Origin: Escherichia phage MET-P1-301
Direction: 5' to 3' (one strand)
DNA: 64,000 nucleotides
Sequence record: PV700625
Below, one piece after another: positions 1,043 to 61,267 of the stretch; position 1 is the stretch's first letter; the number at the start of each line of letters is the position of its first letter. The position numbers and the translations under genes are program-made. Below the pieces are notes generated by a model. The model did no database searches and was not told the origin of the DNA. It worked only from the letters and a program-made list of their open reading frames with translations.

Positions 1043-1291
1043 TTAGTTGTACCCTTGTTTGCTGTAGTACAGGGAGACAATCAAATCACCCCAATAATGG
1101 TAATGATGTTCATCGTTTAACGCCTCTTTTACTGCATCTTTCCAGAAGTCATCAGTAGGGTTATAATCTGGGATAACTTGCTTGATAACTGTCTTCACTA
1201 ATGAAAAGCATTCATCAGTTCCACCAATATCAAATTTAACGTCCAGAGTGTAGCAGCCATAAGCATTAACAGTAGCGCGGATAGTAGCCAT
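1043..1291 (-). CDS. hypothetical early protein (82 aa)
   Basis: ORF preceded by family-A leader cassette and GGAGA Shine-Dalgarno. Confidence 0.5.
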   Translation of the reverse strand: MATIRATVNAYGCYTLDVKFDIGGTDECFSLVKTVIKQVIPDYNPTDDFWKDAVKEALNDEHHYHYWGDLIVSLYYSKQGYN

Positions 1292-1365
1292 TTTTGAATC
1301 TCCTAGTTTAAGGTATTTATCTAGTGGGAGGTTATTACCTCCCGTTGATTAGTAATTTACTGCAT
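1292..1365 (-). promoter_or_regulatory. Early-gene leader cassette, family A
   Basis: Conserved ~75 nt directly 5' of the ATG: GGGAGG/CCTCCC-type hairpin, then ACTAAATAAAGTCCTTAAACTAGGAGATTC-AAAATG. Confidence 0.55.
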
Positions 1366-1619
1366 GTTGGCGTATGTTGCAAGCCTTTTTCGTTGTATTT
1401 TGTAAGAATCTCACAAGATAAAACATCATATTTTTTAATCGCGTTACCTTTTTCGAGGTCAAAGAATCCGAACGCTTTACCGTCTTTGAATCCGACAACC
1501 TCGTAAGACTCTTTGATGATTTCACCATTGAACAAATCACTTTCGATACGATGGAATAGTGCTACATCCTCTTTGTCGGTTGCAATTTGTAAAAGTGTGG
1601 TCAGTTCGACGTGTTCCAT
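1335..1619 (-). CDS. hypothetical early protein (94 aa)
   Basis: ORF with family-A leader upstream; its C-terminus reads through the hairpin of the next cassette. Confidence 0.5.
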   Translation of the reverse strand: MEHVELTTLLQIATDKEDVALFHRIESDLFNGEIIKESYEVVGFKDGKAFGFFDLEKGNAIKKYDVLSCEILTKYNEKGLQHTPTCSKLLINGR

Positions 1620-1692
1620 TTTGAATCTCCAGTTTAGGATTTTATTTAGTGGGGAAGGTCATTCCCTCCCCGTTGATTGACAATTTACAGAT
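1620..1692 (-). promoter_or_regulatory. Early-gene leader cassette, family A
   Basis: GGGGAAGGtcattCCCTCCCC hairpin plus conserved SD-ATG context. Confidence 0.55.
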
Positions 1693-2215
1693 TTTTGATT
1701 GTCTCGTCAATATCTTTTTCAATATCTTTTAAAGTTTTTTCTAAGTTCTTGATATTGAAAGTTAAACCTTCACCGAGCGTTTTATAGTGACCATTAGGTC
1801 TATGGTCATAGAGTTCGATTTCTTCCACATCGGATAAGTTTACCATCTCACCATTTGCAGCATAGGCTATTGACACAGTATTTTCAGGTGCGTCGTAAAA
1901 CTTATTCAGTGACTTGATAGCACGTTCATAAGCCATTTTATAACCATTTAAAAGGTTTTTAACGTGATTGTGAACGTTTTTACAATCATCTAAGTAAAGA
2001 CCTAAAAACATCGGGAGAAGTTCCGCGACAGCTTGCATAAAGTGAGAGACTACAACGGTGGAAACATTACGACGATGGACGTAATAAGCCCCGTTTTCTG
2101 ATTTGGTAATGGTTGCAAAGTGTACACCATTGCAACGAAATTCATAGGTATCTTTAACAGGCTTAGACATTACAGCATTTGAACGAATGAAGTTGATAGC
2201 TTGAAATTTGTTCAT
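1685..2215 (-). CDS. hypothetical early protein (176 aa)
   Basis: Long ORF with family-A leader upstream. Confidence 0.55.
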   Translation of the reverse strand: MNKFQAINFIRSNAVMSKPVKDTYEFRCNGVHFATITKSENGAYYVHRRNVSTVVVSHFMQAVAELLPMFLGLYLDDCKNVHNHVKNLLNGYKMAYERAIKSLNKFYDAPENTVSIAYAANGEMVNLSDVEEIELYDHRPNGHYKTLGEGLTFNIKNLEKTLKDIEKDIDETIKNL

Positions 2216-2290
2216 TTTAGAATCTCCAGTTTAGGACTTTATTTAGTGGGAGGTTATTGCCTTCCCGTTGATTAGTAATTTACTTGTTTT
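2216..2290 (-). promoter_or_regulatory. Early-gene leader cassette, family A
   Basis: GGGAGGttattgCCTTCCC hairpin plus conserved SD context. Confidence 0.55.
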
Positions 2291-2433
2291 GATAGCTGAT
2301 TGCAAGCAATTTTTTAAGTTTATCTATAAAGAATCTTTTAAGTTAATCCCTTTTAGATAAACCCCTCGAACAAAGTTACCAATGTCAAGGGGAGTTGTCA
2401 ACACTTTTTTAAAAGTTTTTTGTAAGTTGTTGA

Positions 2434-2779
2434 TTAACTGATGAATATTTTTTCAGGTTTTACATAGCTGATACGCTGGCTTTTTAGCAGGTCATCCCAG
2501 ATTAGCGCGGCAATATGAGAATAGCCGGATTCACGTAAAATCTTCATTGTTTTACTTCTCGTTTCAAAACGGCTTGCGTAGTATTCACTGTTCAAGGTAG
2601 TTTTATTCCCTTCGTTATCTGTATGGATGATTTGCATTACCTGAAAGGGCTTACATCCTCGCCTTTGTTCCACTGCTCAAAGTATTTTAGGCACTGCATA
2701 GGCGACATCTTATCACTGACTTGAGTTGACCAAGATGAATCTTCTTTATTGGTAATTACAGTTACATAAGCCATTTTAG
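2434..2779 (-). CDS. hypothetical early protein, interrupted by an apparent frameshift near 2670
   Basis: ATG at 2779 sits directly behind a leader cassette; that 45-aa frame merges into the 79-aa ORF 2434-2673 after a one-base shift at an AAA run. Confidence 0.4.
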
Positions 2780-2853
2780 AATCTCCTAGTTTAAGGACTT
2801 TATTTAGTGGGGAAGGTCATTCCCTCCCCGTTGATTAGTAATTTACAGACTTT
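2780..2853 (-). promoter_or_regulatory. Early-gene leader cassette, family A
   Basis: GGGGAAGGtcattCCCTCCCC hairpin plus SD context, same as the copy at 1620. Confidence 0.55.
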
Positions 2854-2855
2854 TA

Positions 2856-3098
2856 TCAGGCTTGTCTAGTCTTTTCAATGATAATTTCATATTGACCATC
2901 GACGCTATCAAAATAAATGCCGTCGCTATCTTCTGTCTTAAAGTAACATTGTATATCATCACTGGCGGGATAGTCTTGTCTTGCTATCTGGCAAACTTGA
3001 ATAGCATTTTCTTTACTCCCTGTAAACTCCTCAAGCCCTTTAAAATCGCATGAATGACCGTTACAAATAGAAAGGATGAGATAAATGGTTGTCAACAT
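2856..3098 (-). CDS. hypothetical small Cys-containing protein (80 aa)
   Basis: ORF with hydrophobic N-terminus; no leader cassette, sits 68 nt downstream of the previous gene. Confidence 0.4.
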   Translation of the reverse strand: MLTTIYLILSICNGHSCDFKGLEEFTGSKENAIQVCQIARQDYPASDDIQCYFKTEDSDGIYFDSVDGQYEIIIEKTRQA

Positions 3099-3166
3099 GA
3101 TTTAAGCCTTCTAAATGGCCCTGTACGGGCCTTAAGTTGGAAGTTGGTGTCTTTGTACTGATTAGC

Positions 3167-3724
3167 CTAAAAGTCTTTTAAATTGCGTTCTGTGAGGTTT
3201 GCCGTGATTTTATCCAGTAGGTCACAATACACAGAGCAATCCCCGCTATTCTGCACAATTTTCGCCATACTTAACAAATCTTCGTCAATATCTCCTAAAT
3301 TACGGTTAGTTGTATCAGGTACAAAGAAAGGCGCATATATTGCACTAAATTTCGTCGAGTGAAGGCCAACAATCCAATCCTTATCAAAGTATCCGGTAAA
3401 ACTGGCGATATCACTCATGTTGTCACAAGAATAATCGTCTTCTAGCTCTTCCTCTGGGATATCCATTTCAATGACAATCACGTCCTGCGTTTCCATTTGG
3501 AAAGCTGCCGTAATAAGTCCAGACTCTAAAGCGTTTTGAATGCAGCGTTCACGGATGTAAGAATCTTCCTCATCTTCCAGACATTCCGTTTTGATAACCT
3601 TGTTCATTGGGTAAACGTAGAAACAATCGTCCATGTAGGAGCAGTTCCAGATTCCTTCCGGCTTGTCGCCACCATTCAGCAGGTTTACAAAGTTTTTGAG
3701 GGTAGTCCCGTGATAGCATTTCAT
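3167..3724 (-). CDS. hypothetical early protein (185 aa), acidic
   Basis: ORF preceded by family-B leader cassette. Confidence 0.5.
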   Translation of the reverse strand: MKCYHGTTLKNFVNLLNGGDKPEGIWNCSYMDDCFYVYPMNKVIKTECLEDEEDSYIRERCIQNALESGLITAAFQMETQDVIVIEMDIPEEELEDDYSCDNMSDIASFTGYFDKDWIVGLHSTKFSAIYAPFFVPDTTNRNLGDIDEDLLSMAKIVQNSGDCSVYCDLLDKITANLTERNLKDF

Positions 3725-3810
3725 TTTTGAATCTCCAGTTTAGGATTTAGTGGTAAAGCTCTTTATCTGGGGCTTACTTTATCGAACTATAAGCCCCTTG
3801 TAAAGTACTT
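3725..3810 (-). promoter_or_regulatory. Early-gene leader cassette, family B
   Basis: Perfect hairpin GGGGCTTA-13 nt-TAAGCCCC, then AGATAAAGAGCTTTACCACTAAATCCTAAACTGGAGATTCAAAAATG. Confidence 0.55.
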
Positions 3811-4012
3811 TAACGATTATTTTTGACAACTTTTAAAACTGCAAGATAACCTAAGCAATAAGAATCACCGAAGAGAGTTCTACCCATGAAAGAATCCTCT
3901 TTGATATCCTTTGCAGTGACAGTTTTTTCTACGCCGTGGGAAAGGACTACATCCCCAACTTTGATGTCTTTGATGTGTGTTGTTTCAATGGTTAAGCCGT
4001 TAATATTAGCCA
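3810..4012 (-). CDS. hypothetical early protein (start refined to the ATG at 4012, 67 aa)
   Basis: The conserved leader/SD places the start at 4012; the longer track ORF to 4058 would read through the leader cassette. Confidence 0.45.
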
Positions 4013-4088
4013 TTTTAGAATCTCCTAGTTTAAGGATTTTACTTAGTGGGAAGGTCATTCCCTCCCCGTTGATGAGTAATTTAATCTA
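4013..4088 (-). promoter_or_regulatory. Early-gene leader cassette, family A
   Basis: GGGAAGGtcattCCCTCCCC hairpin plus SD context. Confidence 0.55.
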
Positions 4089-4163
4089 TCTAGAAATCAG
4101 TGTCAACAGTTTTTTAGAGTTCTGCGTAAATTGCGTCACAAATATCACGAAAATCATGATTTG

Positions 4164-4516
4164 TTAAATTACGTTGCAACCATGTTGCAAAAAGTCAGCA
4201 ATTGCAAAATTTGCGTCATACTCGACAGATAGCCACACTTTCACGGCAAAACGAAACATTTTTAAATCAAGCTCTTTATTCATTACCTTTGATTTGCCTA
4301 ACATGTCAGCCATTTCATATTGTGCACCGTCTAGCGTGATACCTGCTGCAACGTCAGCCAATGAGTTTTTACACTTTCAACGTCTAAGATAACACTTTGA
4401 ATCTTCCCGATAATATTGTGCAATGTCTCATCAGGTGCTGATGATGTAATAACATTAATCCGGTTAACGGTTAAACGTGCTTTTAAGATTGATAACTCAC
4501 GGTTATTAATAGTCAT
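4164..4516 (-). CDS. hypothetical early protein, two overlapping ORFs probably joined by a frameshift near 4340
   Basis: Track ORFs 4331-4516 and 4164-4361 overlap in different frames; family-B leader sits upstream of 4516. Confidence 0.35.
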
Positions 4517-4600
4517 TTTAGAATCTCCAATTTAGGATTTAGTGGTAAAGCTCTTTATCTGGGGCTTACTTTATCGAACTATAAGCCCCTTGTAAAGTAC
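4517..4600 (-). promoter_or_regulatory. Early-gene leader cassette, family B
   Basis: GGGGCTTA...TAAGCCCC hairpin plus SD context. Confidence 0.55.
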
Positions 4601-4629
4601 TTTATACTAAATGCAGCTTTTACCTTTTA

Positions 4630-4872
4630 CTATGATGTAACTTGCTGCGCTATTGCCGCATACATCTTGATAAATTCTGCGCAAACGGCCTTCGTAGTGG
4701 ACTTTCCAGCTAGTTGGAATCTTTTTCCCGTATCCGGTAGCAGTTTTTGGAGTCCTGCTACTTGCCAATCTAAGATATGTTGCTCAGCTTGTAAATCTTC
4801 AAAGTGCATCACACCATCAACATAGTGACGTAGAGTGACATTTAAAGTACGACCGTTGTTAGTAGTATACAT
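4630..4872 (-). CDS. hypothetical early protein (80 aa)
   Basis: ORF preceded only by the SD part of the cassette (catttttgaatctcctagtttaagg). Confidence 0.45.
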   Translation of the reverse strand: MYTTNNGRTLNVTLRHYVDGVMHFEDLQAEQHILDWQVAGLQKLLPDTGKRFQLAGKSTTKAVCAEFIKMYAAIAQQVTS

Positions 4873-4895
4873 TTTTGAATCTCCTAGTTTAAGGC

Positions 4896-5054
4896 TTATT
4901 TTGACAGTTCACTAATTAAGACATCAAAGATTATATCATTATCTGCTACAGTTGCAACACCAGTGATATAATCAATTTCTAAGATAACAACAACTTTCGT
5001 ACATAAACCGTCATCTATATCATTCCAGACAACTTTATCACCTGCACAAAACAT
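4896..5054 (-). CDS. hypothetical small protein (52 aa, MFCAGDKVVWNDIDDG...)
   Basis: Hand-translated ORF below the 60-aa track cutoff, directly behind a family-A leader at 5055-5132. Confidence 0.4.
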   Translation of the reverse strand: MFCAGDKVVWNDIDDGLCTKVVVILEIDYITGVATVADNDIIFDVLISELSK

Positions 5055-5132
5055 TTTTTGAGTCTCCTAGTTTAAGGACTTTATTTAGTAGGGAGGTTAT
5101 TGCCTCCCCGTTGATGTGTAATTTAATCTATC
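5055..5132 (-). promoter_or_regulatory. Early-gene leader cassette, family A
   Basis: GGGAGGttattgCCTCCCC hairpin plus SD context. Confidence 0.55.
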
Positions 5133-5144
5133 TAAAAATCAGTG

Positions 5145-5477
5145 TCAACAGTTTTGTTTTCGTTTGCTCAATTCTTGAACAATTACAGCGTAGTAGTCTT
5201 TTAAGTCACTGATATTTAAAGCATTTATCAGAGAATTATAATCATCGACTAACTGGAAATCATCCTTGAAGATGTCACTTATCTGATAGGTTTTCGCTTT
5301 GAATCTGAAGCTCATCTCTAGCCGCTTTATTTGCTCATCACTGAGACGCCCTAGAAAGCTCTCTACAAGGTTATTGCTAACCTGCTGTGTGATTGCCTTA
5401 TTTGCTAGATTATAGGCTTTATATGCCTTATATAGCGCGAAAATGGCAATGATTGCAGTGATACCAGTCATTAACAT
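5145..5477 (-). CDS. hypothetical membrane protein (110 aa)
   Basis: N-terminal hydrophobic helix (GITAIIAIFALY). Confidence 0.45.
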   Translation of the reverse strand: MLMTGITAIIAIFALYKAYKAYNLANKAITQQVSNNLVESFLGRLSDEQIKRLEMSFRFKAKTYQISDIFKDDFQLVDDYNSLINALNISDLKDYYAVIVQELSKRKQNC

Positions 5478-5550
5478 GGTGTTTCCTCTTTACGTGATAC
5501 TTTGCCATTTACAGTTATCTCATAAGATTCTAATAAATCGCTTTTAGACT

Positions 5551-5766
5551 TTACAGGGCTTTTAAAAGTATCATCATAAACATTGACTTGCAATACAGGT
5601 TTTTATACTCCCTGCAACTATTCCATAAGCAAATCACTACACGACGGCCTTTGATTTTTCCGTGTAACCATTCCATAACATCATGACTATTCCTTGATGT
5701 TTCAATAAAATCAATTTTGTTGAGTAACTTGCTTAGATTTTCACGGATTTTATTTGATAATTTCAT
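5551..5766 (-). CDS. hypothetical early protein
   Basis: ORF behind a family-B-like leader; C-terminus may be frameshifted. Confidence 0.35.
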   Translation of the reverse strand: MKLSNKIRENLSKLLNKIDFIETSRNSHDVMEWLHGKIKGRRVVICLWNSCREYKNLYCKSMFMMILLKAL

Positions 5767-5850
5767 TTTTGAATCTCCAGTTTAGGATTTAGTGGTAAAG
5801 CTCTTTATCTGGGGCTATCTTAACAGCTTGATAACCCCATGTAAAGAAAT
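5767..5850 (-). promoter_or_regulatory. Early-gene leader cassette, family B variant
   Basis: GGGGCTATC...GATAACCCCA hairpin variant plus the conserved downstream block. Confidence 0.5.
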
Positions 5851-5854
5851 CTAT

Positions 5855-6367
5855 TTAGTTCTTAAAGATATTCATCACTGAATCTTTTAATGATTCCAAG
5901 CGTTCTAACACTTCAGATTCTGCGTCTGCGTTGTTCACTTCCTCTTTTAACCTATCCTCTAAATCATCGCCGTCACTATAGCACCAGTCGAAAGCATAAC
6001 CAATATAAAAGCTATCTAAAACCGTGTTGCCATTTGCATCTACAACTTTCGCGGCAATGTTATACTCTGAAGCCTCTAAATCTCTTTCTAGTTCTTTTTG
6101 TAAGCTTGTATAAGCCTCTTTTGATGGATTTTCCCGGCCTTGTTTTGCGTAGTCACTTGAAAGCTGTTTAAGGCTGTAATGTAAAGGGATTGCATATTTA
6201 AATTCATTATGCTGGCAGTTAGGATTTTTAACAGTCACACCGCCTTGATGGTCATCTGTAAATTCCCAATTATCAAGATTATGGCTTGCTTCAAAGCAAT
6301 TAACAGCTTCATAGATAATAGTGAATTTTTCTTTTACAACTTCAAAGGTAGCGTCTACAGTTTTCAT
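5855..6367 (-). CDS. hypothetical early protein (170 aa)
   Basis: ORF with family-B leader upstream. Confidence 0.5.
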   Translation of the reverse strand: MKTVDATFEVVKEKFTIIYEAVNCFEASHNLDNWEFTDDHQGGVTVKNPNCQHNEFKYAIPLHYSLKQLSSDYAKQGRENPSKEAYTSLQKELERDLEASEYNIAAKVVDANGNTVLDSFYIGYAFDWCYSDGDDLEDRLKEEVNNADAESEVLERLESLKDSVMNIFKN

Positions 6368-6450
6368 TTTTGAATCTCCAGTTTAGGATTGAGTAGTAAG
6401 TTCTTTATCTGGGGCTTAAGATATCAGCTTTTAAGCCCCTGTAAAGTACT
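6368..6450 (-). promoter_or_regulatory. Early-gene leader cassette, family B
   Basis: GGGGCTTAagatatcagcttTTAAGCCCC hairpin plus conserved block. Confidence 0.55.
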
Positions 6451-6453
6451 TTA

Positions 6454-6744
6454 TCAGTTAATTTTCAGTTTTGCATAGCCTCTCATTGTACGAATGGGGG
6501 ATGTTAAGGCTACGCGTCTAATATATGCCTTTTTCGTGTATACATTTGTCTTCCCGATAGTGTTTACACATGTAAAAAGGTTTATTGGTGAATTTTTTAA
6601 TTTCAACTGTCTATCAGTCTTCACGCCCCATCTTACATCAGATTGTTTTCCGTTGTCAACCACTTTCCCGCCTAACTTTTTCGCCATGATGCGAGCGTCA
6701 TCACGAGTTTTTGCAGGAACTACAACGTTTTTGATAATAGCCAT
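6454..6744 (-). CDS. hypothetical early protein (96 aa), basic
   Basis: ORF with family-B leader upstream. Confidence 0.5.
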   Translation of the reverse strand: MAIIKNVVVPAKTRDDARIMAKKLGGKVVDNGKQSDVRWGVKTDRQLKLKNSPINLFTCVNTIGKTNVYTKKAYIRRVALTSPIRTMRGYAKLKIN

Positions 6745-6830
6745 TTTTGAATCTCCAATTTAGGATTGAGTAGTAAAGCTCTTTATCTGGGGCTTACTTT
6801 ATCGAACTATAAGCCCCTTGTAAAGTACTT
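6745..6830 (-). promoter_or_regulatory. Early-gene leader cassette, family B
   Basis: Near-identical to the copy at 3725-3810. Confidence 0.55.
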
Positions 6831-6832
6831 TA

Positions 6833-7213
6833 TCAGTTAATTTTGAATATTGTCACATAACCATCACTACCAATTATTTGAGACGCTCCAGCTTTCTCCA
6901 CTGAATAGCCCATATTTTCAAGATGGTAAACAGCATCATCATAACCATATGCGCCACCTTGATAACGTCTCTTATTGCAGCTTATCAGGTTTTTACCACG
7001 TCCTGCCAGTGCATTCAGTACGGCTTTTTCACTTGATAACGTACCGTCTATCATTGTTGCCGTGTAATGGTTGATTTTATTCCCGTTGATATCATACTTG
7101 AAATTAAACGAGTGAACAATAATAACGTTACCTTTAAATTTTTCATCAAGTGCCTTCTCCAGTGCGTTGCGGAAGTTGTCTTTGTTGATGAATTTCGGTG
7201 CACGATAAGCCAT
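6833..7213 (-). CDS. hypothetical early protein (126 aa)
   Basis: ORF with family-B leader upstream. Confidence 0.5.
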   Translation of the reverse strand: MAYRAPKFINKDNFRNALEKALDEKFKGNVIIVHSFNFKYDINGNKINHYTATMIDGTLSSEKAVLNALAGRGKNLISCNKRRYQGGAYGYDDAVYHLENMGYSVEKAGASQIIGSDGYVTIFKIN

Positions 7214-7298
7214 TTTTGAATCTCCTAGTTTAAGGTTAATGTAGTAAAGCTCTTTATCTGGGGCTTAAGATATCAGCTTTTAAGCCCCTGTAAAGTAC
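7214..7298 (-). promoter_or_regulatory. Early-gene leader cassette, family B
   Basis: GGGGCTTAagatatcagcttTTAAGCCCC hairpin plus conserved block. Confidence 0.55.
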
Positions 7299-7301
7299 TT
7301 T

Positions 7302-9242: not shown

Positions 9243-9527
9243 TTAGCTCATATAAATCAACATGCTCAATGCTATCAATGTTGATACCAATCTTTTGAAG
9301 CGTTCTATCACTTCGTTGTCAGTCATCCATATCAGACACCAATGATTGTGGATGGATTCTTCAAGGAGGTCAACACAATCTTTAAAAGTTTTTGTATCAC
9401 TTCTTGTTCCTACTACTGCGATTGTGCCATATAGCCACTTACCATTGCCATAAGATATTTGTGCTACACCAACTTCTTTATCTTTCTCGTAGTAAATGGC
9501 TACAAAGTCTCTTCCATTAATCTGCAT
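9243..9527 (-). CDS. hypothetical protein (94 aa)
   Basis: ORF in operon. Confidence 0.4.
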   Translation of the reverse strand: MQINGRDFVAIYYEKDKEVGVAQISYGNGKWLYGTIAVVGTRSDTKTFKDCVDLLEESIHNHWCLIWMTDNEVIERFKRLVSTLIALSMLIYMS

Positions 9528-13343: not shown

Positions 13344-15709
13344 TTAATCGTAAACTGTAGTTCCTTCTGGAACACACTTCACATCAAAGCCTAAGAACTT
13401 ACTCACTTCGATGGGTGACACTTTATTCCAATCTAAATGAGAAAGCAAGAAGTTTTCTTGTTTTCTTTTTGAAAGGTAGTTTGTCACCTTAATAACCATA
13501 CGGTCACCAGCTTTCTTAATTTTCTTGTAAAGCTTTGTATCGTTGTCAAGACAGTCTTTCAAAGTTTTCAATACACTAATAGTATAAGTGTATGCAAATG
13601 GTGCAGCAACGTATTGGATTTTACCGAACATTGCCTCTACAGCCTCTTCATTACCTTCTAGGAAGATAGTTTTGTTTGTATCCCGTGAATAGCAATAACC
13701 ACGAGAAATCTTCCTATTATTGAATGTAAAGTTTCTGGCAATAATCCAGCTACTTGTAAGGTCAAGAACACCATTCATATAGATGCGTGTCATATACCTG
13801 TTATGATTAATCCAATGAACATCAGTTAAGCTGTCGTTCAAGAGCTTCTCATCTACTTCAATCCAGTCTTCTGGTATCTTTTTCCAATTTGCTTTTCGGA
13901 AAACATAGACTGTCTTTCCAATAACATTAGCAACTGACTTAGCTACATCTTCTGGGGATGAGCAAAAACATTCACCATCAACTGTGTCACCAATTGCCTT
14001 AATGTAAAGCTGAGGTTCTTCAATTGTGTCTAAGTCCTCTGACACCTCTTTGTAGGAGGCTACACCTTCTGCTGGAACAGCTTTCCAGAGTTTTACAACA
14101 CCTCTTACAGCTTCTTTACGCTGGTAATGGTGTTCCTTATCAGACATTTTCACAATCTTTAACAAGCTTTTATCAAGTTTGTGCAGATTGATTAAGTCAT
14201 CTAACTCTTTTTCAGTCGAGAATACAAAGACAATACCATTGTATCTGTGAAACAGACTTGACTCACTGGCATAGTCTCGACATGCACCACGCAAGATTTG
14301 GTTGCGTCCTACAGTCTTCTCAGTACCATTTTTATTGCGACGGTCATTTATAACAAACAAAAACTGTTCAATTTGGCTTTTACGCATTGCGCCAAAGATA
14401 TTGAACATACTTGCCTCTTGAGTGTAGGAAAGTGCTGTTGCACGAATCTTACTCTCTAAAGAGTTGAACTTGACATAAGCAACTGGGTCATAAAGATAAT
14501 CTACTTTAGGGATGTTGTTTCCGTTCCTATCAACCTTAATATTACCTTTACCGTCACGTTCATAAATGACTGAGCCGTCTTCTGCGTAGATAATTCCACG
14601 ACGAATGTTTAGTAATTCTTCTTCCAGAGAATCAAGCTTAACGCCTCCCCACTCTAACTTTGGACACACAGCATTAAACATCTCTCGTGAGTTCAAACGT
14701 AACTCAGCATAAGCCTGTGCAGCATCCATGAGTGTAGGTTGACTGTTAACTTTCTTGATAACATCCTTTGTAATTGCTTCAGTTATCTTTTAGTAGCCTC
14801 AATGATAACATTTTTTGTCGTGTCATTCATCTGCAATGCTTCACGAGAAGCTGCAATAGCGACTGAACCAATAGGCATGTAGATGTTTACAAGGTCTACG
14901 CTCCTACGGAAAAATTCTGGCAATACTTTGAAGAAATCATCACCAAGTAATGCTTCCATGTTAACAGGGTAGGCAATGTTACCCATCACCACATTAAACT
15001 CTGTCCTGTTACCACTAGAACGCCAGCTTTGCTTATGAATCATGGCATCATAAACACCCTCTTCACGGGCAATGACGTTCATATCTGCTAATACATCGTC
15101 GTACACAATATTACTTTCTGGTTTTACAGCAAAGTATGAGTATACATTACCAGCTTCTTCAAAGAACTTTGAGATACGGTGGTCAGCAACTGCCACACGT
15201 ACAGCTAAACCATTAGGTTCTTTTGTTGGGTTAGTGGTCAGCTTAGTTACTTGAGGAATACCATTCTCAAGATAAACAGAGTACTTATTAACAACACCAT
15301 CAACATAGCTAGATACTGTGAATGACTGAGCAATTGCAAATGGTGACTTTGAGCCGATACCCATTGCACCAATGTAATCATTGGAGTCATTCTTCGTAGA
15401 AGCTCCGTAGTTCAGATACAAACTCATTACTTTGTCATGGGTTAAACCAGTTCCAAAGTCACGGACTTCAAAGTAAGGCTCAAAACGAGTAGGTAAATGC
15501 ACATGGAACGGGATGTTCTCTTTTCCAGCTTCTTTCTGAGCATCTACTGCGTTACATGACAGTTCACGAATCACTGCCCTTTCTTTAAAGGTATATACAC
15601 CAGAACTCAAAAGGCTGAACATCTCAGGTGTCATTGTAATCTGTGCTTGAGACGTCTCTAAAGAAGTTGAACTCTTAATCACTTCTGCGTGGTCATTTAC
15701 CATGCGCAT
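13344..15709 (-). CDS. rIIA: rIIA-like protein (N-terminal GHKL ATPase fold), two ORFs probably joined by a frameshift near 14730-14785
   Basis: 14783-15709 has GHKL-type motifs (RELSCNAVDA, RDFGTGL, YIGAMGIGSKSPF, AIAASREAL) recalled from T4 rIIA; 13344-14729 continues; combined ~780 aa; rIIA-rIIB synteny. Confidence 0.7.
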
Positions 15710-16230: not shown

Positions 16231-16244
16231 AATTTTCTCCAGAA

Positions 16245-30680: not shown

Positions 30681-30773
30681 TCATACACGGCTCCCAATTA
30701 TATTTCTTGAAAGAGAAATTATCTTTTGGATTTCTCTCTTGATAAGCTATCCAGAAATGCTGTTCCATTAGCT

Positions 30774-33099: not shown

Positions 33100-35091
33100 T
33101 CACTCAGTTTCGAATGGGCAGTCATCTGCATCCTCACTTAATACAGGTGGAATCGTTGAGCTTTGACGCTGCTCTTCAGTATAGACTTCACCAGTCTCAC
33201 GGTCAAACACTTCATCCTCATAATGTGGCAAAGAGTCATCGTAATGGTCTTCAGCTTCGCCAATACCAAACTGTTGGCGAATATTTTCTGCTGCACCATC
33301 AATGTCAACCCCACAACCAGATGCTTTGATGAGGCGTCCTGTATCTGGATTGTACCAAGTATGACCAGCAATACCAGTTGACTTACCATGACGACGACAT
33401 TTAGTTAACTTGATTTTTGTCAAGTTTTTCTTAACAGGGTCTGGGTCAACCTTGTTACGCATTAACAGAATGTTGTTCATAGAAATCTGGAAATACGCAC
33501 CAGAGCCTTTAATATCCTCTTCAGAGATATCTCCACCTTCAGAGTTGGCTTTCTGACCACCTGCGCTCTTACGAACGTGACAGACGTTCACCTGTGCATA
33601 CTGGTAGCGTTTGCAACGGCGCAATAGCTCAGACAAAACTTCCTCTTCATCCGTATCTGAACGTGACAGAGCCAACGTAATAGGGTCAAGAATAATAATC
33701 TTACAGTCTAAACTGTTAACAAGATAATCAACAAATTCCAGCAGGTTATCTTGGTCAATTGCCCCTTGATGGTCTACGATGTGGATACGACGACCTTTAG
33801 ACAGTTCTGCATGTGCTTCCTTCAATTCATCCCAATCACGTTCGTCATAAGGAATCTCAGAAATCTGCTTGCTGAGGTGGATTGCACAGAGCATCTCCAT
33901 CAACTCTTCATAGGTATCTTCGACCGGAATTACACCAATATTGTAATCGGTATCTTTCCAAGCAGTATAAATCATTTCACGAGTGTATGCTGATTTACCC
34001 ACTGAAGATGGTGCTGCCAGAGTTGTAATCTCACCTAAACCATAACCACCGTAAGTCAGTCTGTTTAAATCCCCGAAAGATTCTGGGAAAGGAATCAATG
34101 GAATCTGACCACGATTCTTCATTGCCTCAAAACCATCTGCGAAGTTCTTGATACCAGCAGGGCAGTAACGGGGCGCATTGTAGATACGCTGCTTAAACCC
34201 TTCAAGAACTGTGTCTTTCTCTTTATAGAACTTTGTCCACCATTCGTTAAGGTCTTTTACACCTTCTGGATACTGGAATAAACGAACCTTCTCAATAGGT
34301 AGGATACCAGCAGCCTCTTTGGTAGCTTTAGCACCTGCTTCATCATTATCAAAGCACAAGTAAATCTCATCAAATGATGTGATGTACTGATAGTTGTCTT
34401 TGATAGACTTAATGTTTGCACCTGACGGAACAGATACGTGACAGTAATTCTTACGACGAGACTTATCTTTAATCGCCAAAGAAGTCATGTAGATTGCTGT
34501 CGCACATTCCATCTCACCTTCCCAGATGAATAGACGGTTACCACCTTCTGGAGCAATCCATGAGCCGAACATTGCCAGTTCACCTTTAATGTCTCCAACA
34601 CCACCAGAAAAGTCTTTTAGTTTACCACGTAGGTGCTCTTTTGGATGGTCTTCTGGGTAACGGTGACGAACACGGTAGCCAACATGTTCTAGCTTACCAT
34701 CTTCATTACGTTTGTAAGTTGGATAGAAGTGCGCATCAATTTCACCGTCACTGTCAATGTCAACCTTGATACCTAAGCGTTCAAGGACTTTTGCAGGAAT
34801 CTTCCTATCTTTCAAGTCCATTGCTTCTAGGTTTTCTTTTACATCGTCTAAATCCATTCCACGGAAAGTACGGTTTTTATTGTCTGAACCAGTAGAATAA
34901 GTGCTCACGATTTGCCCTTTATCAAAATCCCACTCTGGGAAACCCTTGTTACAACTAAAGCAAGTCATTGAATAAGAATCATCGTCATGATGATAGATTG
35001 AACCAGCATCTGATGAACCACAACGTGGACATGCGCAATGACCAACAAACTGACCAGCCTCTTTCAATTTACGACCTTTAGACATTAGCAC
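33100..35091 (-). CDS. Bifunctional DNA primase-helicase (T7 gp4-like)
   Basis: N-terminal Cys4 zinc ribbon (CPRCGSSD...CFSCNKG), TOPRIM (LCFDNDEAGAKA), Walker A (LAAPSSVGKSA) and Walker B (IIILDPITLA). Confidence 0.85.
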   Translation of the reverse strand: MLMSKGRKLKEAGQFVGHCACPRCGSSDAGSIYHHDDDSYSMTCFSCNKGFPEWDFDKGQIVSTYSTGSDNKNRTFRGMDLDDVKENLEAMDLKDRKIPAKVLERLGIKVDIDSDGEIDAHFYPTYKRNEDGKLEHVGYRVRHRYPEDHPKEHLRGKLKDFSGGVGDIKGELAMFGSWIAPEGGNRLFIWEGEMECATAIYMTSLAIKDKSRRKNYCHVSVPSGANIKSIKDNYQYITSFDEIYLCFDNDEAGAKATKEAAGILPIEKVRLFQYPEGVKDLNEWWTKFYKEKDTVLEGFKQRIYNAPRYCPAGIKNFADGFEAMKNRGQIPLIPFPESFGDLNRLTYGGYGLGEITTLAAPSSVGKSAYTREMIYTAWKDTDYNIGVIPVEDTYEELMEMLCAIHLSKQISEIPYDERDWDELKEAHAELSKGRRIHIVDHQGAIDQDNLLEFVDYLVNSLDCKIIILDPITLALSRSDTDEEEVLSELLRRCKRYQYAQVNVCHVRKSAGGQKANSEGGDISEEDIKGSGAYFQISMNNILLMRNKVDPDPVKKNLTKIKLTKCRRHGKSTGIAGHTWYNPDTGRLIKASGCGVDIDGAAENIRQQFGIGEAEDHYDDSLPHYEDEVFDRETGEVYTEEQRQSSTIPPVLSEDADDCPFETE

Positions 35092-37323: not shown

Positions 37324-37548
37324 GTAAGCCTCTTTTAAGTAACTATTAAGTTTTAATCTTTTATCTTAACGTATTCTATACGTTATACTTTAAAGCTTTT
37401 TAAAAGCTATTAAATAATCTTTTAAGAGTTTTAAAGTATCTGTATAGTTAAACTGTTAAGTAACCTTTTAAGTAAAAACCCACTTCGCAAAGATTAACAC
37501 CTTGTCAAGTGTATTGTCAACTTGCTTTTATAATTTTTGCAGTAATGT
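37324..37548. promoter_or_regulatory. AT-rich divergent intergenic region, candidate bidirectional promoter
   Basis: 225-bp gap between divergent genes; contains TTGTCA/TTGACA-like hexamers and an exact TATAAT, plus GAGGGAG SD before the polymerase ATG. Confidence 0.45.
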
Positions 37549-40275
37549 ATGGGGTTAATGATTTTAGAGGGAGTAAAAATGGAAAACGTAGATTTTAAAA
37601 ACTTACATTTGGTTGGTGATACAGAAACTGATGGTTTACTCCTTGAGTTCACTAAAGTTCACGTAATGGCCTTTGCAGACTATAAATCTGACGATGAAGA
37701 GCCACCTGTATGGGTCTTTACAGATGAGCCTATCCTCGGTCACAAGTACACTAAGTACATTAAGGGTGGTTTACGTGAAGGTGTTGAGTTTGCGTTAAAG
37801 GCAAAACGACTTTGTATCCATAACGGCCTCGGTTATGACTGGTGGGTCTTCAATCACATTGCACCGGATTTATGGAACTTTGATAATCCAAAATGTAAGC
37901 CGTGGAGTAATTTCTTTCAGGATTCTCTTATTCAGTCTCGTGTTCAGTGGATGGATAGACCAACTCCAAAGGGTTATAAAGGTGCTCATGGTTTGGCTGC
38001 ATGGGGTGCTCGCGTTGGTGTTCGTAAGCCAGAGATTGAGCATTGGGGTGTGTGGAATGCAGAAATCTTCACTCGTGTTGTAGAAGATATTCGTATTAAC
38101 GCCAAAACTAAACGTGCACTTGATAATGAGTATCTCAAGCTTAAGAAGTGTGGCATAGACACTTATGAGACTTACATGCGAGCTAAAGAAACATCTTTCT
38201 GGATGAGTCAACAGGCTATTAATGGCTGGAAAGCTGATAAAGAGCTTATGGAGTTCCATGTGAAGGAACTTGACAAATTGACTAATGAGCTTGCTTCAGA
38301 GGTTGAACCACATCTACCTCCAACTATTAAGACCAAAGGTAAAGTCACTGGAGAAGAGTTTGCAAAAGCTTGGAATGAGTATGTTGAAGCATTCGGTCAT
38401 GCAGATGGACTGAAGAGAATTACCAAGTACCCTAAGACAAAGTACCGTCAGCAGGTACGTAACGGTGAGATGCAGACATACGAAATCAAGCCATTTGGTA
38501 AGCCAACTACAAAGATTTTTAACATTGAAAAGAGGAATTGCTATACACCAACCAACTCTGTAACTGGTGAAGAGTACAAGGAAGGTTTTGTAGCAATGAA
38601 GGATGCTCGTGCAATTTGCAATGAGTTGAACGCAAAGATTGGTAAGAAATGCAAAGACTGGAAGCCAGTAAAAACAGTCAAAACTGTGAAGTACTATAAC
38701 AGTCATGTTGTTAACCACTTTGAGCTTGAGTCAAGTCGCTACACAGGATTGATTGATGCACCATATACACCAATTGAGTTTGAAGTTTCTCGTATGACTC
38801 AGGTAGCAGTTGTTAAAGACTACTTGAAGTCAGTTGGTTGGATTCAGATGACTGGAACTACAAGAAAGATTCAGACGGTCGTCCTGTCAAAGTTTGTCGT
38901 TTCAAAGACAACAAAAGATGATTACAAAGCATCCTAAGTGGCAGGAGATGGTTGAACGGTGTGGCTTGAGTTATGTTGAACATGAAGGTGTCCAGTACAT
39001 TGAGCATAACTGGTCTGTGAAGAAATACACAGATTTGCTTGAGCCTTGCTTAATCCGTACTTCACCAAAACTTACTGAATCTTCTTATGATACGATTGAA
39101 GGTGAGCTTGGACAGAAGATTGCTAAATACTATACTTTGATGCACCGACGCAGAACTATTGAGAACTCAAAGGATGATGAAAAAGGTTGGTTGAATCAGA
39201 TTCGTCCTGATGGTCGCCTTAGTGCTGGTGCAATGGTATTTGGTACTTCAACTGGACGTATGACACAATATGGTATTGTAAACGTACCGTCTGGTGCTGC
39301 TGTCTATGGGGAACCAATGAGGGCAGTGTGGATTTGTGAAGAAGGTACTAACGTTGTCTCTGTAGACATGAACTCAGCCCAGCTAGTTCTCCTTTGTAAC
39401 TTTATGGGTGACAAAGACTTCACCAAAGCAGTAACGCAAGGTAAAGAAGAGATTGAGTTCATTCGTCAAGAAGATGGACGCTATTACTGCAAACATTTTG
39501 ATGAGTACCTCAACCCAGAGATTGATAAGTACCTTCGTTATGACTCTGAGAATGACCTGTACGTTGTCTATTCAGGGACTGATGCACATACACTGAACAG
39601 TATTTACTTTAGCTTGAATGATGAGCAGGATATCTTGACTTGTCGAGCTACTCAGGATGAGAACCTTCTCCATGAGATTAGTAAGGGTCGTAAGAAAGCT
39701 AAGAATGGTATCTATGCACTGCTGTTCGGTGCAGGTGATGAGAAGTTTGCTAAGACGATTAAAGCTGCAACTACTCAGGAAGGCGCACTGACTAAACAGA
39801 CTTACTTTATTCGTTTACCTAAAATTAAGAAGCTGTTAGATGACTTGGAAGCTGACTACAAAGCAACTAAAAAGGCACTTGAAGAGGTGTTTGGTAAGAC
39901 TGCTGCAATCTCTAAAGGGGTTTTGTAAAGGTTGCTGGAGCTTGGTTGTGGTGTAAATCTCCACATAAGCTATTGAATTATTTGCTTATGGGTTCGGAGG
40001 CTCAGATTCAAAACGAGGCAATTAACCTTGCTTGTCGTCGTATGATTGACGAAGGTTTGATGAAGTTGAATGGTCGTCAACCAGCTATTGGTGCTCGTTT
40101 GCTCTGCGCATATCACGATGAAACAAGCTGGGAATGTCCAGAAAGTATGACGGCAGAAGTGAAAGCAGTTACTGACTGGTATTATGGACAAGCTTCTAAG
40201 AACTTAGGTCTTAAGAAAGAAACACTTGTTACAGGTACTGGTAAGGTTGGTAAAAGCTGGCTTGAGGTTCACTAA
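37549..40275 (+). CDS. Family-A DNA polymerase (T7-like) with 3'-5' exonuclease domain, encoded as three consecutive ORFs separated by apparent frameshifts
   Basis: Exo I motif VGDTETDGL; fingers/palm blocks STGRMTQYG, LLFGAGDEKFAKTI, LLCAYHDETSW (motif C); junctions at 38894-38937 and 39926-39946 (GGGGTTTT run). Confidence 0.85.
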
Positions 40276-41161: not shown

Positions 41162-41368
41162 ATGGAAGTATTAGTAAACTATATCTATCGTTATGATGTT
41201 GTTCACTCCACTACAACTGTAGCTCAACGAAATCCAATAGTTCCACGAGAAGGTGAGCTTGTTCGCATTGATGGTTGGACTTACACTGTGGAAAGCATCA
41301 TTCATAAGTTTGATGTTGCTGGTGATGTTCAAGTTATCGACGTGGAAATTGGTGGTAAGAGAAAATGA
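41162..41368 (+). CDS. hypothetical protein (start taken at the ATG at 41162)
   Basis: Track ORF 41063-41368 overlaps the lipoprotein; the internal ATG is non-overlapping. Confidence 0.35.
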   Translation: MEVLVNYIYRYDVVHSTTTVAQRNPIVPREGELVRIDGWTYTVESIIHKFDVAGDVQVIDVEIGGKRK

Positions 41369-41523
41369 AATCTAAGCAAACAATGACAGATGCAATCTTC
41401 ACAGTACACAGTTTCGAAAGGTTGCACATTAAAGATGTAAAAATACACCAAAATGCGTTGTACATTTCATTAAAAGACGTAGTGAGAGGTCTTATATAAA
41501 ATCTGACACAGGCGAGAGTACAA

Positions 41524-41742
41524 ATGGGTAAAGATAATAAATTTCAGAACGCAGTTCTTACAGAAGATGGTGAGCTTGAAACATTCATTCTTCGTGTTGA
41601 TGGTAAGTTATTCCGGTGTCGTTGTGGGTCAAACTGTTTCCATAAACCAGATAAAAACGACTTAGAGCTTTACGCATGTAATGCTTGCAACACTTGGTAT
41701 CACTCAGAGGTTAAAAATGACAATTCTGTACAAACAAAATAA
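41524..41742 (+). CDS. hypothetical Cys-rich zinc-ribbon protein (72 aa)
   Basis: CRCGSNC...CNACNTW. Confidence 0.4.
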   Translation: MGKDNKFQNAVLTEDGELETFILRVDGKLFRCRCGSNCFHKPDKNDLELYACNACNTWYHSEVKNDNSVQTK

Positions 41743-55178: not shown

Positions 55179-58653
<3,475 letters not shown>

Positions 58654-60557: not shown

Positions 60558-61196
60558 TTACATTTTTCCTGCTCTTCTAAGTTCGTTGTAAGCAATTTCC
60601 TCTTTATACGACCTCTGAATCTCAAGAAATTGTCTCAATGATAATAAATCAGAGAATGTCATAGCAAAGAGTTGGTCAAGTGTTTCTTTACACCCTTCCA
60701 TACCATAAATAGCAAGCACAAATTTCATCTCGTCTGCTTCTTCATAGGTTGCCTCTACAGCAGCATCAGTCAGTGGTGTCTGTAGAGTATTGCCTATGTT
60801 TACTGAGAAGTTAGGCTTTTGAAAATGCTTGCTTCGAAAACTTCCGAAGTTTGCCTCCAGCGCAAATGCTAAGTAATCAATAAACTCGCCGTAGTTTGCT
60901 TGGAAGTACGTATCAATATTAAGTGGGAAGTCATCAACAGTTGCCCCTTGAAATAGTAATGTAGCCATTTCTTCAAGGTTAATTTCTTCAATTCTGTCAA
61001 AACAAGCTTCAACAAGTTCTTTAAATGGAACCATTGGAGCTTCTTTCTTGTCTTTATCAGTCAGACTTGACAGCATCTGTGCAAAGGTTGGGACAACAAT
61101 TTTACCCAACTTCATAGACATCTTAATACCATCTCTTGCCCCAAGCAGAACAATATTTACTTTCTTACCATTAATTACTCTAGATTCTGTTTTCAT
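60558..61196 (-). CDS. Tail assembly chaperone-like protein
   Basis: 212 aa between tube and tape measure (P2 gpE position). Confidence 0.4.
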   Translation of the reverse strand: MKTESRVINGKKVNIVLLGARDGIKMSMKLGKIVVPTFAQMLSSLTDKDKKEAPMVPFKELVEACFDRIEEINLEEMATLLFQGATVDDFPLNIDTYFQANYGEFIDYLAFALEANFGSFRSKHFQKPNFSVNIGNTLQTPLTDAAVEATYEEADEMKFVLAIYGMEGCKETLDQLFAMTFSDLLSLRQFLEIQRSYKEEIAYNELRRAGKM

Positions 61197-61267
61197 TGTG
61201 ATTCCTTAATACTTTTAAAAGAAACAAAAAAGGGAAGACCTTTTAAAGTCTCCCCTTATAGGATTTA

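Follow-up and report, generated by a model that had tools for sequence, protein, structure and literature searches.

The three-piece DNA polymerase gene of Escherichia phage MET-P1-301 is very probably a single continuous gene broken by homopolymer under-calls

Three open reading frames (ORFs) coding for parts of a DNA polymerase are found on the + strand of the window, the whole stretch of 64,000 nucleotides from Escherichia phage MET-P1-301 (PV700625) analysed here. The ORF translations place them at 37549-38937 (462 aa), 38894-39928 (344 aa) and 39946-40275 (109 aa). As a first-pass annotation of the sequence had described, the junctions between the pieces are short, the first two ORFs overlapping by 44 nt and the last two being separated by a gap of 17 nt, and the second junction is located at GGGGTTTT (39917-39924). 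The same annotation placed the pieces in three frames; the three listed ORFs, however, use two frames only (1, 2 and 1). Its assignment of the product to the family-A DNA polymerases is correct, on the basis of both Pfam DNA_pol_A and similarity to T7 gp5, as is its placement of the exonuclease and catalytic parts. Inspection of the ORF translations by eye locates an ExoI-like DTETDG in ORF1, both motif A (VDMNSAQL) and motif B (RKKAKNGIYALLFGAG) in ORF2, and motif C (YHDE) in ORF3. No separate Pfam match for the exonuclease domain was found in the profile search of the polymerase.

Three-frame translation of the first junction reveals a frame order of 1 to 3 to 2 to 1, and thus four coding segments. 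This junction conceals two 1-bp deletions 68 nt apart, one after 38844 and the other in the A-run at 38913-38916. The features of the locus, with the putative error sites as defined by comparison with related phages, are as follows:

37526-37529 and 37534-37538, + strand: upstream intergenic region with shortened T-runs, T5 to T4 and T6 to T5, respectively (alignment to three relatives)
37549-38844, + strand: polymerase segment 1, frame 1, N-terminal and 3'-5' exonuclease-like, ending in ...KSVGWI
38844-38845, + strand: putative error site 1, CC to C, frame 1 to 3 (relatives ATTCCAGAT, window ATTCAGAT)
38845-38912, + strand: polymerase segment 2, frame 3, 68 nt, encoding the conserved peptide (P)DDWNYKKDSDGRPVKVCRFKDNK
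38913-38916, + strand: putative error site 2, A5 to A4, frame 3 to 2 (alignment to relatives)
38917-39916, + strand: polymerase segment 3, frame 2, thumb/fingers with motifs A and B
39917-39920, + strand: putative error site 3, G5 to G4, frame 2 to 1, at the GGGGTTTT of the first-pass annotation (alignment to relatives)
39921-40275, + strand: polymerase segment 4, frame 1, palm with motif C (YHDE), stop codon TAA at 40273-40275

The frame-3 stretch between the frame-1 and frame-2 pieces reads DSDDWNYKKDSDGRPVKVCRFKDNKR followed by a stop and resembles polymerase sequence, while the segment at 38845-38912 is bounded by stops on both sides in the window and is without a start codon. The real start of the polymerase is probably the ATG at 37579 (MENVDFKN...) and not that at 37549, a Shine-Dalgarno-like GAGGGAG being present 7 nt upstream of the former (region 37565-37581). 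The annotated relatives vary in their choice of polymerase start (906 or 909 aa).

Sequence comparison identifies the window as part of a Felixounavirus (Felix O1-like) genome. A megablast search of 50,697 phage records matched 261 records, nearly all of them Felix O1-like phages of Escherichia, Salmonella and Shigella, with the top matches sharing 96-97% nucleotide identity across the whole 3 kb (~97% for Escherichia phage fjerdesal). The annotations of phages fjerdesal, Ro111lw and UAB_Phi87 show one DNA polymerase CDS of 906-909 aa here, with identical neighbours. Base-level alignment to three relatives indicates that within the gene the window is short by exactly one base at three sites. 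When C, A and G are re-inserted at these sites, an uninterrupted ORF of 909 aa results, the product of which aligns gap-free to the polymerase of fjerdesal at 99.8% identity over 906 aa. The earlier suggestion of sequence errors is strongly supported, although the number of frame breaks is three rather than the two that had been counted.

Repair of the frame also raises the DNA_pol_A score, from 46.2 bits for ORF2 to 55.6 bits for the repaired protein (cutoff 34.3), and lengthens the match from profile positions 181-277 to 181-360, reaching ORF3. Among solved structures, the nearest in sequence is that of T7 gp5, to which the repaired protein aligns without a break through both junction regions, including the stretch from motif B to motif C. 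Across the first junction GWIPDDWNYK of the repaired window, which includes the hidden frame-3 segment, pairs with GWVPTKYTDK of T7 gp5, while across the second ...AISKGGFVK...SPHKLLNYLL pairs with ...SPHAALNTLL.

The polymerase was compared across 32 related loci (29 from IMG/VR and three from GenBank). It is one unbroken ORF of 900-915 aa in 26 of these, and the remaining six are broken only by an unrelated insertion of ~800 bp, being in frame up to the insertion. Wherever the site patterns could be matched in the 32 loci, the CC, A5 and G5 runs are intact, and none of the loci (0/32) requires a frameshift at any of the three sites. Codon differences, counted over pairwise comparisons with 16 related genomes that do not represent independent events, amount to 66 synonymous and 0 non-synonymous in the frame-3 segment and to 754 synonymous and 54 non-synonymous in segment 1. 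The 66:0 synonymous excess in a segment that is closed off on both sides in the window indicates that the gene has been under purifying selection as a single continuous frame. Of six fragment variants looked up by exact protein match, only the 95-aa C-terminal one was found, as a predicted gene in two short, unrelated metagenome contigs (L035 and L036); the former has G5 together with a different break at a coverage of 1.4x, and in the latter the fragment starts at the contig end.

The first-pass annotation had offered, as an alternative to sequence errors, a naturally split polymerase needing frameshifting, and this finds no support in conservation, in an in-frame heptamer or in unusual downstream structure. 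According to this alternative, either three programmed -1 frameshifts would give a full-length protein, or the separate fragments would assemble into a working enzyme. The G/T-rich GGGGTTTT at the last junction could be read in its favour, as could the fact that the shifts total -3, leaving the first and last segments in the same frame; the latter also counts against an artefact, but is taken to be a coincidence. No heptamer of the form X XXY YYZ is, however, present in the incoming frame at junctions 1a, 1b or 2: at junction 2 AAAGGGG lies in frame 3 and GGGTTTT in frame 1, while the incoming frame is frame 2. Folding of the 80 nt that follow each site is not better than that of shuffled sequences (z = 0.17, 1.97 and -0.75). 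Further arguments against a split gene are that no related locus needs the shifts, that the stop-flanked frame-3 segment has no start codon of its own, that the breaks fall within structural elements that are contiguous in the T7 gp5 fold, that three low-efficiency events in series would yield a negligible amount of an essential enzyme and that intergenic DNA shows the same defects. An essential replicase dependent on three frameshifts would be remarkable if true, but the evidence opposes it, and a natural split is considered extremely improbable.

The defects extend beyond the polymerase gene. The T-run shortenings at 37526-37538 demonstrate that the same defect is also present in non-coding DNA. 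Indels across the window were counted against the genome of fjerdesal, which covers it at ~93% identity, and only isolated single-base indels with well-aligned flanks ("clean" indels) were included, so that the deletion tally is a conservative figure. On this basis the window has 60 clean 1-bp deletions and 10 insertions, equivalent to roughly one under-call per kilobase, and 52 of the 60 deletions affect runs with a reference length of 4-6 bases. The frequency with which a reference run has lost one base in the window increases from 0/1217 for 3-base runs to 7/363 (1.9%) for 4-base runs, 21/113 (18.6%) for 5-base runs and 17/26 (65%) for 6-base runs, and the window contains 20 6-base runs compared to 45 in the reference. 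From these run-length rates, ~1.9 shortened runs of at least 4 bases would be expected in the polymerase gene, where two are observed in addition to the CC site.

Frameshifting indels occur in 27 of the 56 fjerdesal CDSs projected onto the window, an upper estimate in that some of those in the genes for the ligase, the minor tail protein, baseplate112 and hyp76 are insertion/deletion pairs created by the alignment where the sequences diverge. The broken CDSs include those for rIIA (deletion at 14787), NAMPT (17825), NrdD (24347), the RNR beta subunit (25236 and 25941), PRPP synthase, dNMP kinase (35420, 35548 and 35645), thymidylate synthase (ThyA; 47978), the tape measure protein (58658, 59764 and 60371) and baseplate proteins. 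Repair of the indels alone leaves a single premature stop, located in a patch of 78% identity with unreliable alignment, and the amino-acid identities of the 56 projected CDSs after repair are typically 97-100%, exceeding the nucleotide identity.

A second alternative is that the deletions are real mutations in a defective or decaying Felixounavirus genome, in which the polymerase and about half of the other genes would be pseudogenes. The frame breaks are indeed present in the sequence as given, and many further genes are broken, as a decaying genome could show. The Felix O1-like phages are, however, virulent, and broken polymerase, RNR, rIIA, tape measure and baseplate genes would bar propagation. 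Moreover, the damage consists almost wholly of 1-bp deletions at a frequency that scales with homopolymer length, with essentially zero nonsense substitutions. The repaired amino-acid identity of 98-100%, well above the nucleotide identity, means that purifying selection has continued until now, as it could not have done in a decaying genome, and this alternative is accordingly regarded as very unlikely. A third, transcriptional slippage at the homopolymer runs that would restore the frame in the RNA, might be suggested by the location of each of the three breaks at a homopolymer. Productive transcriptional slippage requires long A or T runs of ~8-9 bases or more, and the window has only C1, A4 and G4 at these sites, while the relatives carry longer, in-frame alleles. 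The probability of slippage is thus practically negligible.

Junction queries of 44 nt, with which megablast seeding was possible only on the short alleles, were searched against the 50,697 phage records. The A4 and G4 queries gave no match, and the G4 short allele is absent from all of the records searched; the C query gave one match, in Salmonella phage GE_vB_BS. The sequence of this phage, ~91% identical to the window, is flagged UNVERIFIED and is without annotation. Its polymerase is in at least six pieces, and in comparison to fjerdesal it has 236 clean 1-bp deletions and 48 insertions. The polymerase genes of GE_vB_B1 and GE_vB_B3, which are ~92.5% identical to the window in this gene and carry the intron-like insertion, are likewise fragmented; this divergence and the insertion show that neither phage is the source of the window. 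All three records (MG969405-07), each flagged UNVERIFIED, are assemblies derived from MinION R9.4 data only, at 30-60x coverage (PMC5923466). The CC to C change is common to the window and GE_vB_BS only, while A5 to A4 also occurs in GE_vB_BS and GE_vB_B3. The records differ considerably in size: GE_vB_B3 (L041, MG969406.1) is 109,375 bp and GE_vB_B1 (L040, MG969405.1) 59,703 bp, where a typical Felixounavirus genome is 86-90 kb, which suggests assembly over-extension in one of the two and truncation in the other.

The CC to C site is the one that least resembles a pure homopolymer error, the run being only two bases long, and its recurrence in a different phage could, taken alone, be read as a shared real variant. 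If C, A4 and G4 were truly present in the phage DNA and the recurrence of CC to C and A5 to A4 were a shared real trait, a functional polymerase would have to be obtained through three non-canonical recodings or fragment assembly, which is scarcely credible. GE_vB_BS was rejected as proof of allele conservation, as it is an error-laden, nanopore-only record. The recurrence of the CC to C change there fits a context-specific systematic basecalling error, and short alleles that recur only in nanopore-only records and never in good genomes are what a context-dependent systematic error predicts.

The break in the polymerase is thus best read as a sequencing or consensus artefact, comprising homopolymer under-calls in an ordinary continuous gene (probability approximately 0.95, as judged from the deposited sequence). 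Each break is a 1-bp change in a run that is intact in independent genomes, and the changes are genome-wide, biased in direction, more frequent with increasing run length and present in both intergenic DNA and essential genes. The window very probably encodes one ordinary Felixounavirus family-A (T7 gp5-like) DNA polymerase of ~900-909 aa, the frame of which is broken in the deposited sequence where three short homopolymer runs (CC, A5 and G5) have each been called one base too short. These are likely to have arisen during sequencing or consensus calling, with a signature that fits nanopore-type or flow-type homopolymer error. We infer that the physical phage DNA has CC, A5 and G5, and the sequencing platform is deduced in the same manner; the gene carried by the phage itself is almost certainly uninterrupted, and its translation normal and free of recoding.

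The first-pass annotation was right that the window leaves no room for an intron or intein, the alignment to relatives being colinear except for the 1-bp gaps. An intron, intein or homing-endonuclease split was ruled out for the window, where no intervening sequence exists between the coding pieces. Some of the relatives do carry such an interruption, an insertion of ~800 bp within motif B of the polymerase genes of L022-L026, L034, SeKF_63 and GE_vB_B1, B3 and BS, at a site equivalent to ~39717-39723 of the window:

2385-3270 in L022 (also in L023-L026, L034 and L040/L041/L037): insertion in relatives, between ...KNGIYA and LLFGAGDEKF

The insertion contains an ORF of 160 aa, HNH/EndoVII-like, and its match to an Rfam group I intron is below threshold (24.8 bits, where the gathering score is 50; E=7e-4). 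A mobile group I intron is the probable identity of this element. Group I introns with an HNH endonuclease are known from the family-A polymerase genes of phages such as cyanophage Pf-WMP3 (PMC3428280).

Further features of the window were observed in the comparison with the fjerdesal genome. The HNH endonuclease gene fjerdesal_81 (fjerdesal 55946-56462) and two small hypothetical genes (fjerdesal 34201-34495 and 41217-41561) are absent from the window, the corresponding window positions according to the HSP boundaries being ~30685-30710, ~9523-9527 and ~16235-16241. These presence/absence differences probably involve small mobile genes. Cross-matching HSPs also identify an intergenic repeat of ~75-105 nt at window positions 1289-7301, with the core GAATCTCC(T)AGTTT(A)AGGA... 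and at least 10 copies between the small early-region genes, which could represent a promoter or terminator cassette present in many copies.

The chief use of these results is as a quality flag: homopolymers of 4 bases or more in the window are frequently one base short, and approximately half of its larger genes are affected. Split-gene, frameshift or pseudogene calls made from the window should be assumed to be artefacts until they have been compared with relatives, and the remainder of the source genome probably needs the same presumption. The tape-measure chaperone gene (window ~60800-61200; fjerdesal 86594-86992) has a 2-bp deletion relative to fjerdesal. A genuine programmed frameshift is the norm for this gene pair in tailed phages, and an error here could either mimic or hide a real frameshift signal.

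Programmed -1 ribosomal frameshifting is exemplified by dnaX of E. coli and the G/GT tail-chaperone genes of phages. The window resembles such systems in that neighbouring ORFs overlap or abut in different frames, but differs from them in that a slippery heptamer in the incoming frame and a stimulatory structure are both absent and the frameshift is not conserved in relatives. The interruption of the Pf-WMP3 type is probably matched by some Felixounavirus relatives at motif B, while the window is without the insertion and its breaks lie elsewhere. Similarity is also seen with GE_vB_BS, GE_vB_B1 and GE_vB_B3, where deletion-biased 1-bp indels are likewise concentrated in homopolymers and the polymerase is likewise in pieces, although the density of clean deletions is higher in GE_vB_BS (~2.8 per kb) than in the window (~1 per kb). 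A close counterpart is the Felixounavirus polymerase itself (for example fjerdesal QHR70296.1 and UAB_Phi87 AFQ96139.1), which has the same DNA_pol_A and T7 gp5 homology as the window protein. It also lies in the same neighbourhood, with the dNMP kinase, a minor tail protein and a hypothetical gene upstream and small ORFs and the ligase downstream. From this polymerase the window, as deposited, differs only by the three missing bases and hence in its broken frames.
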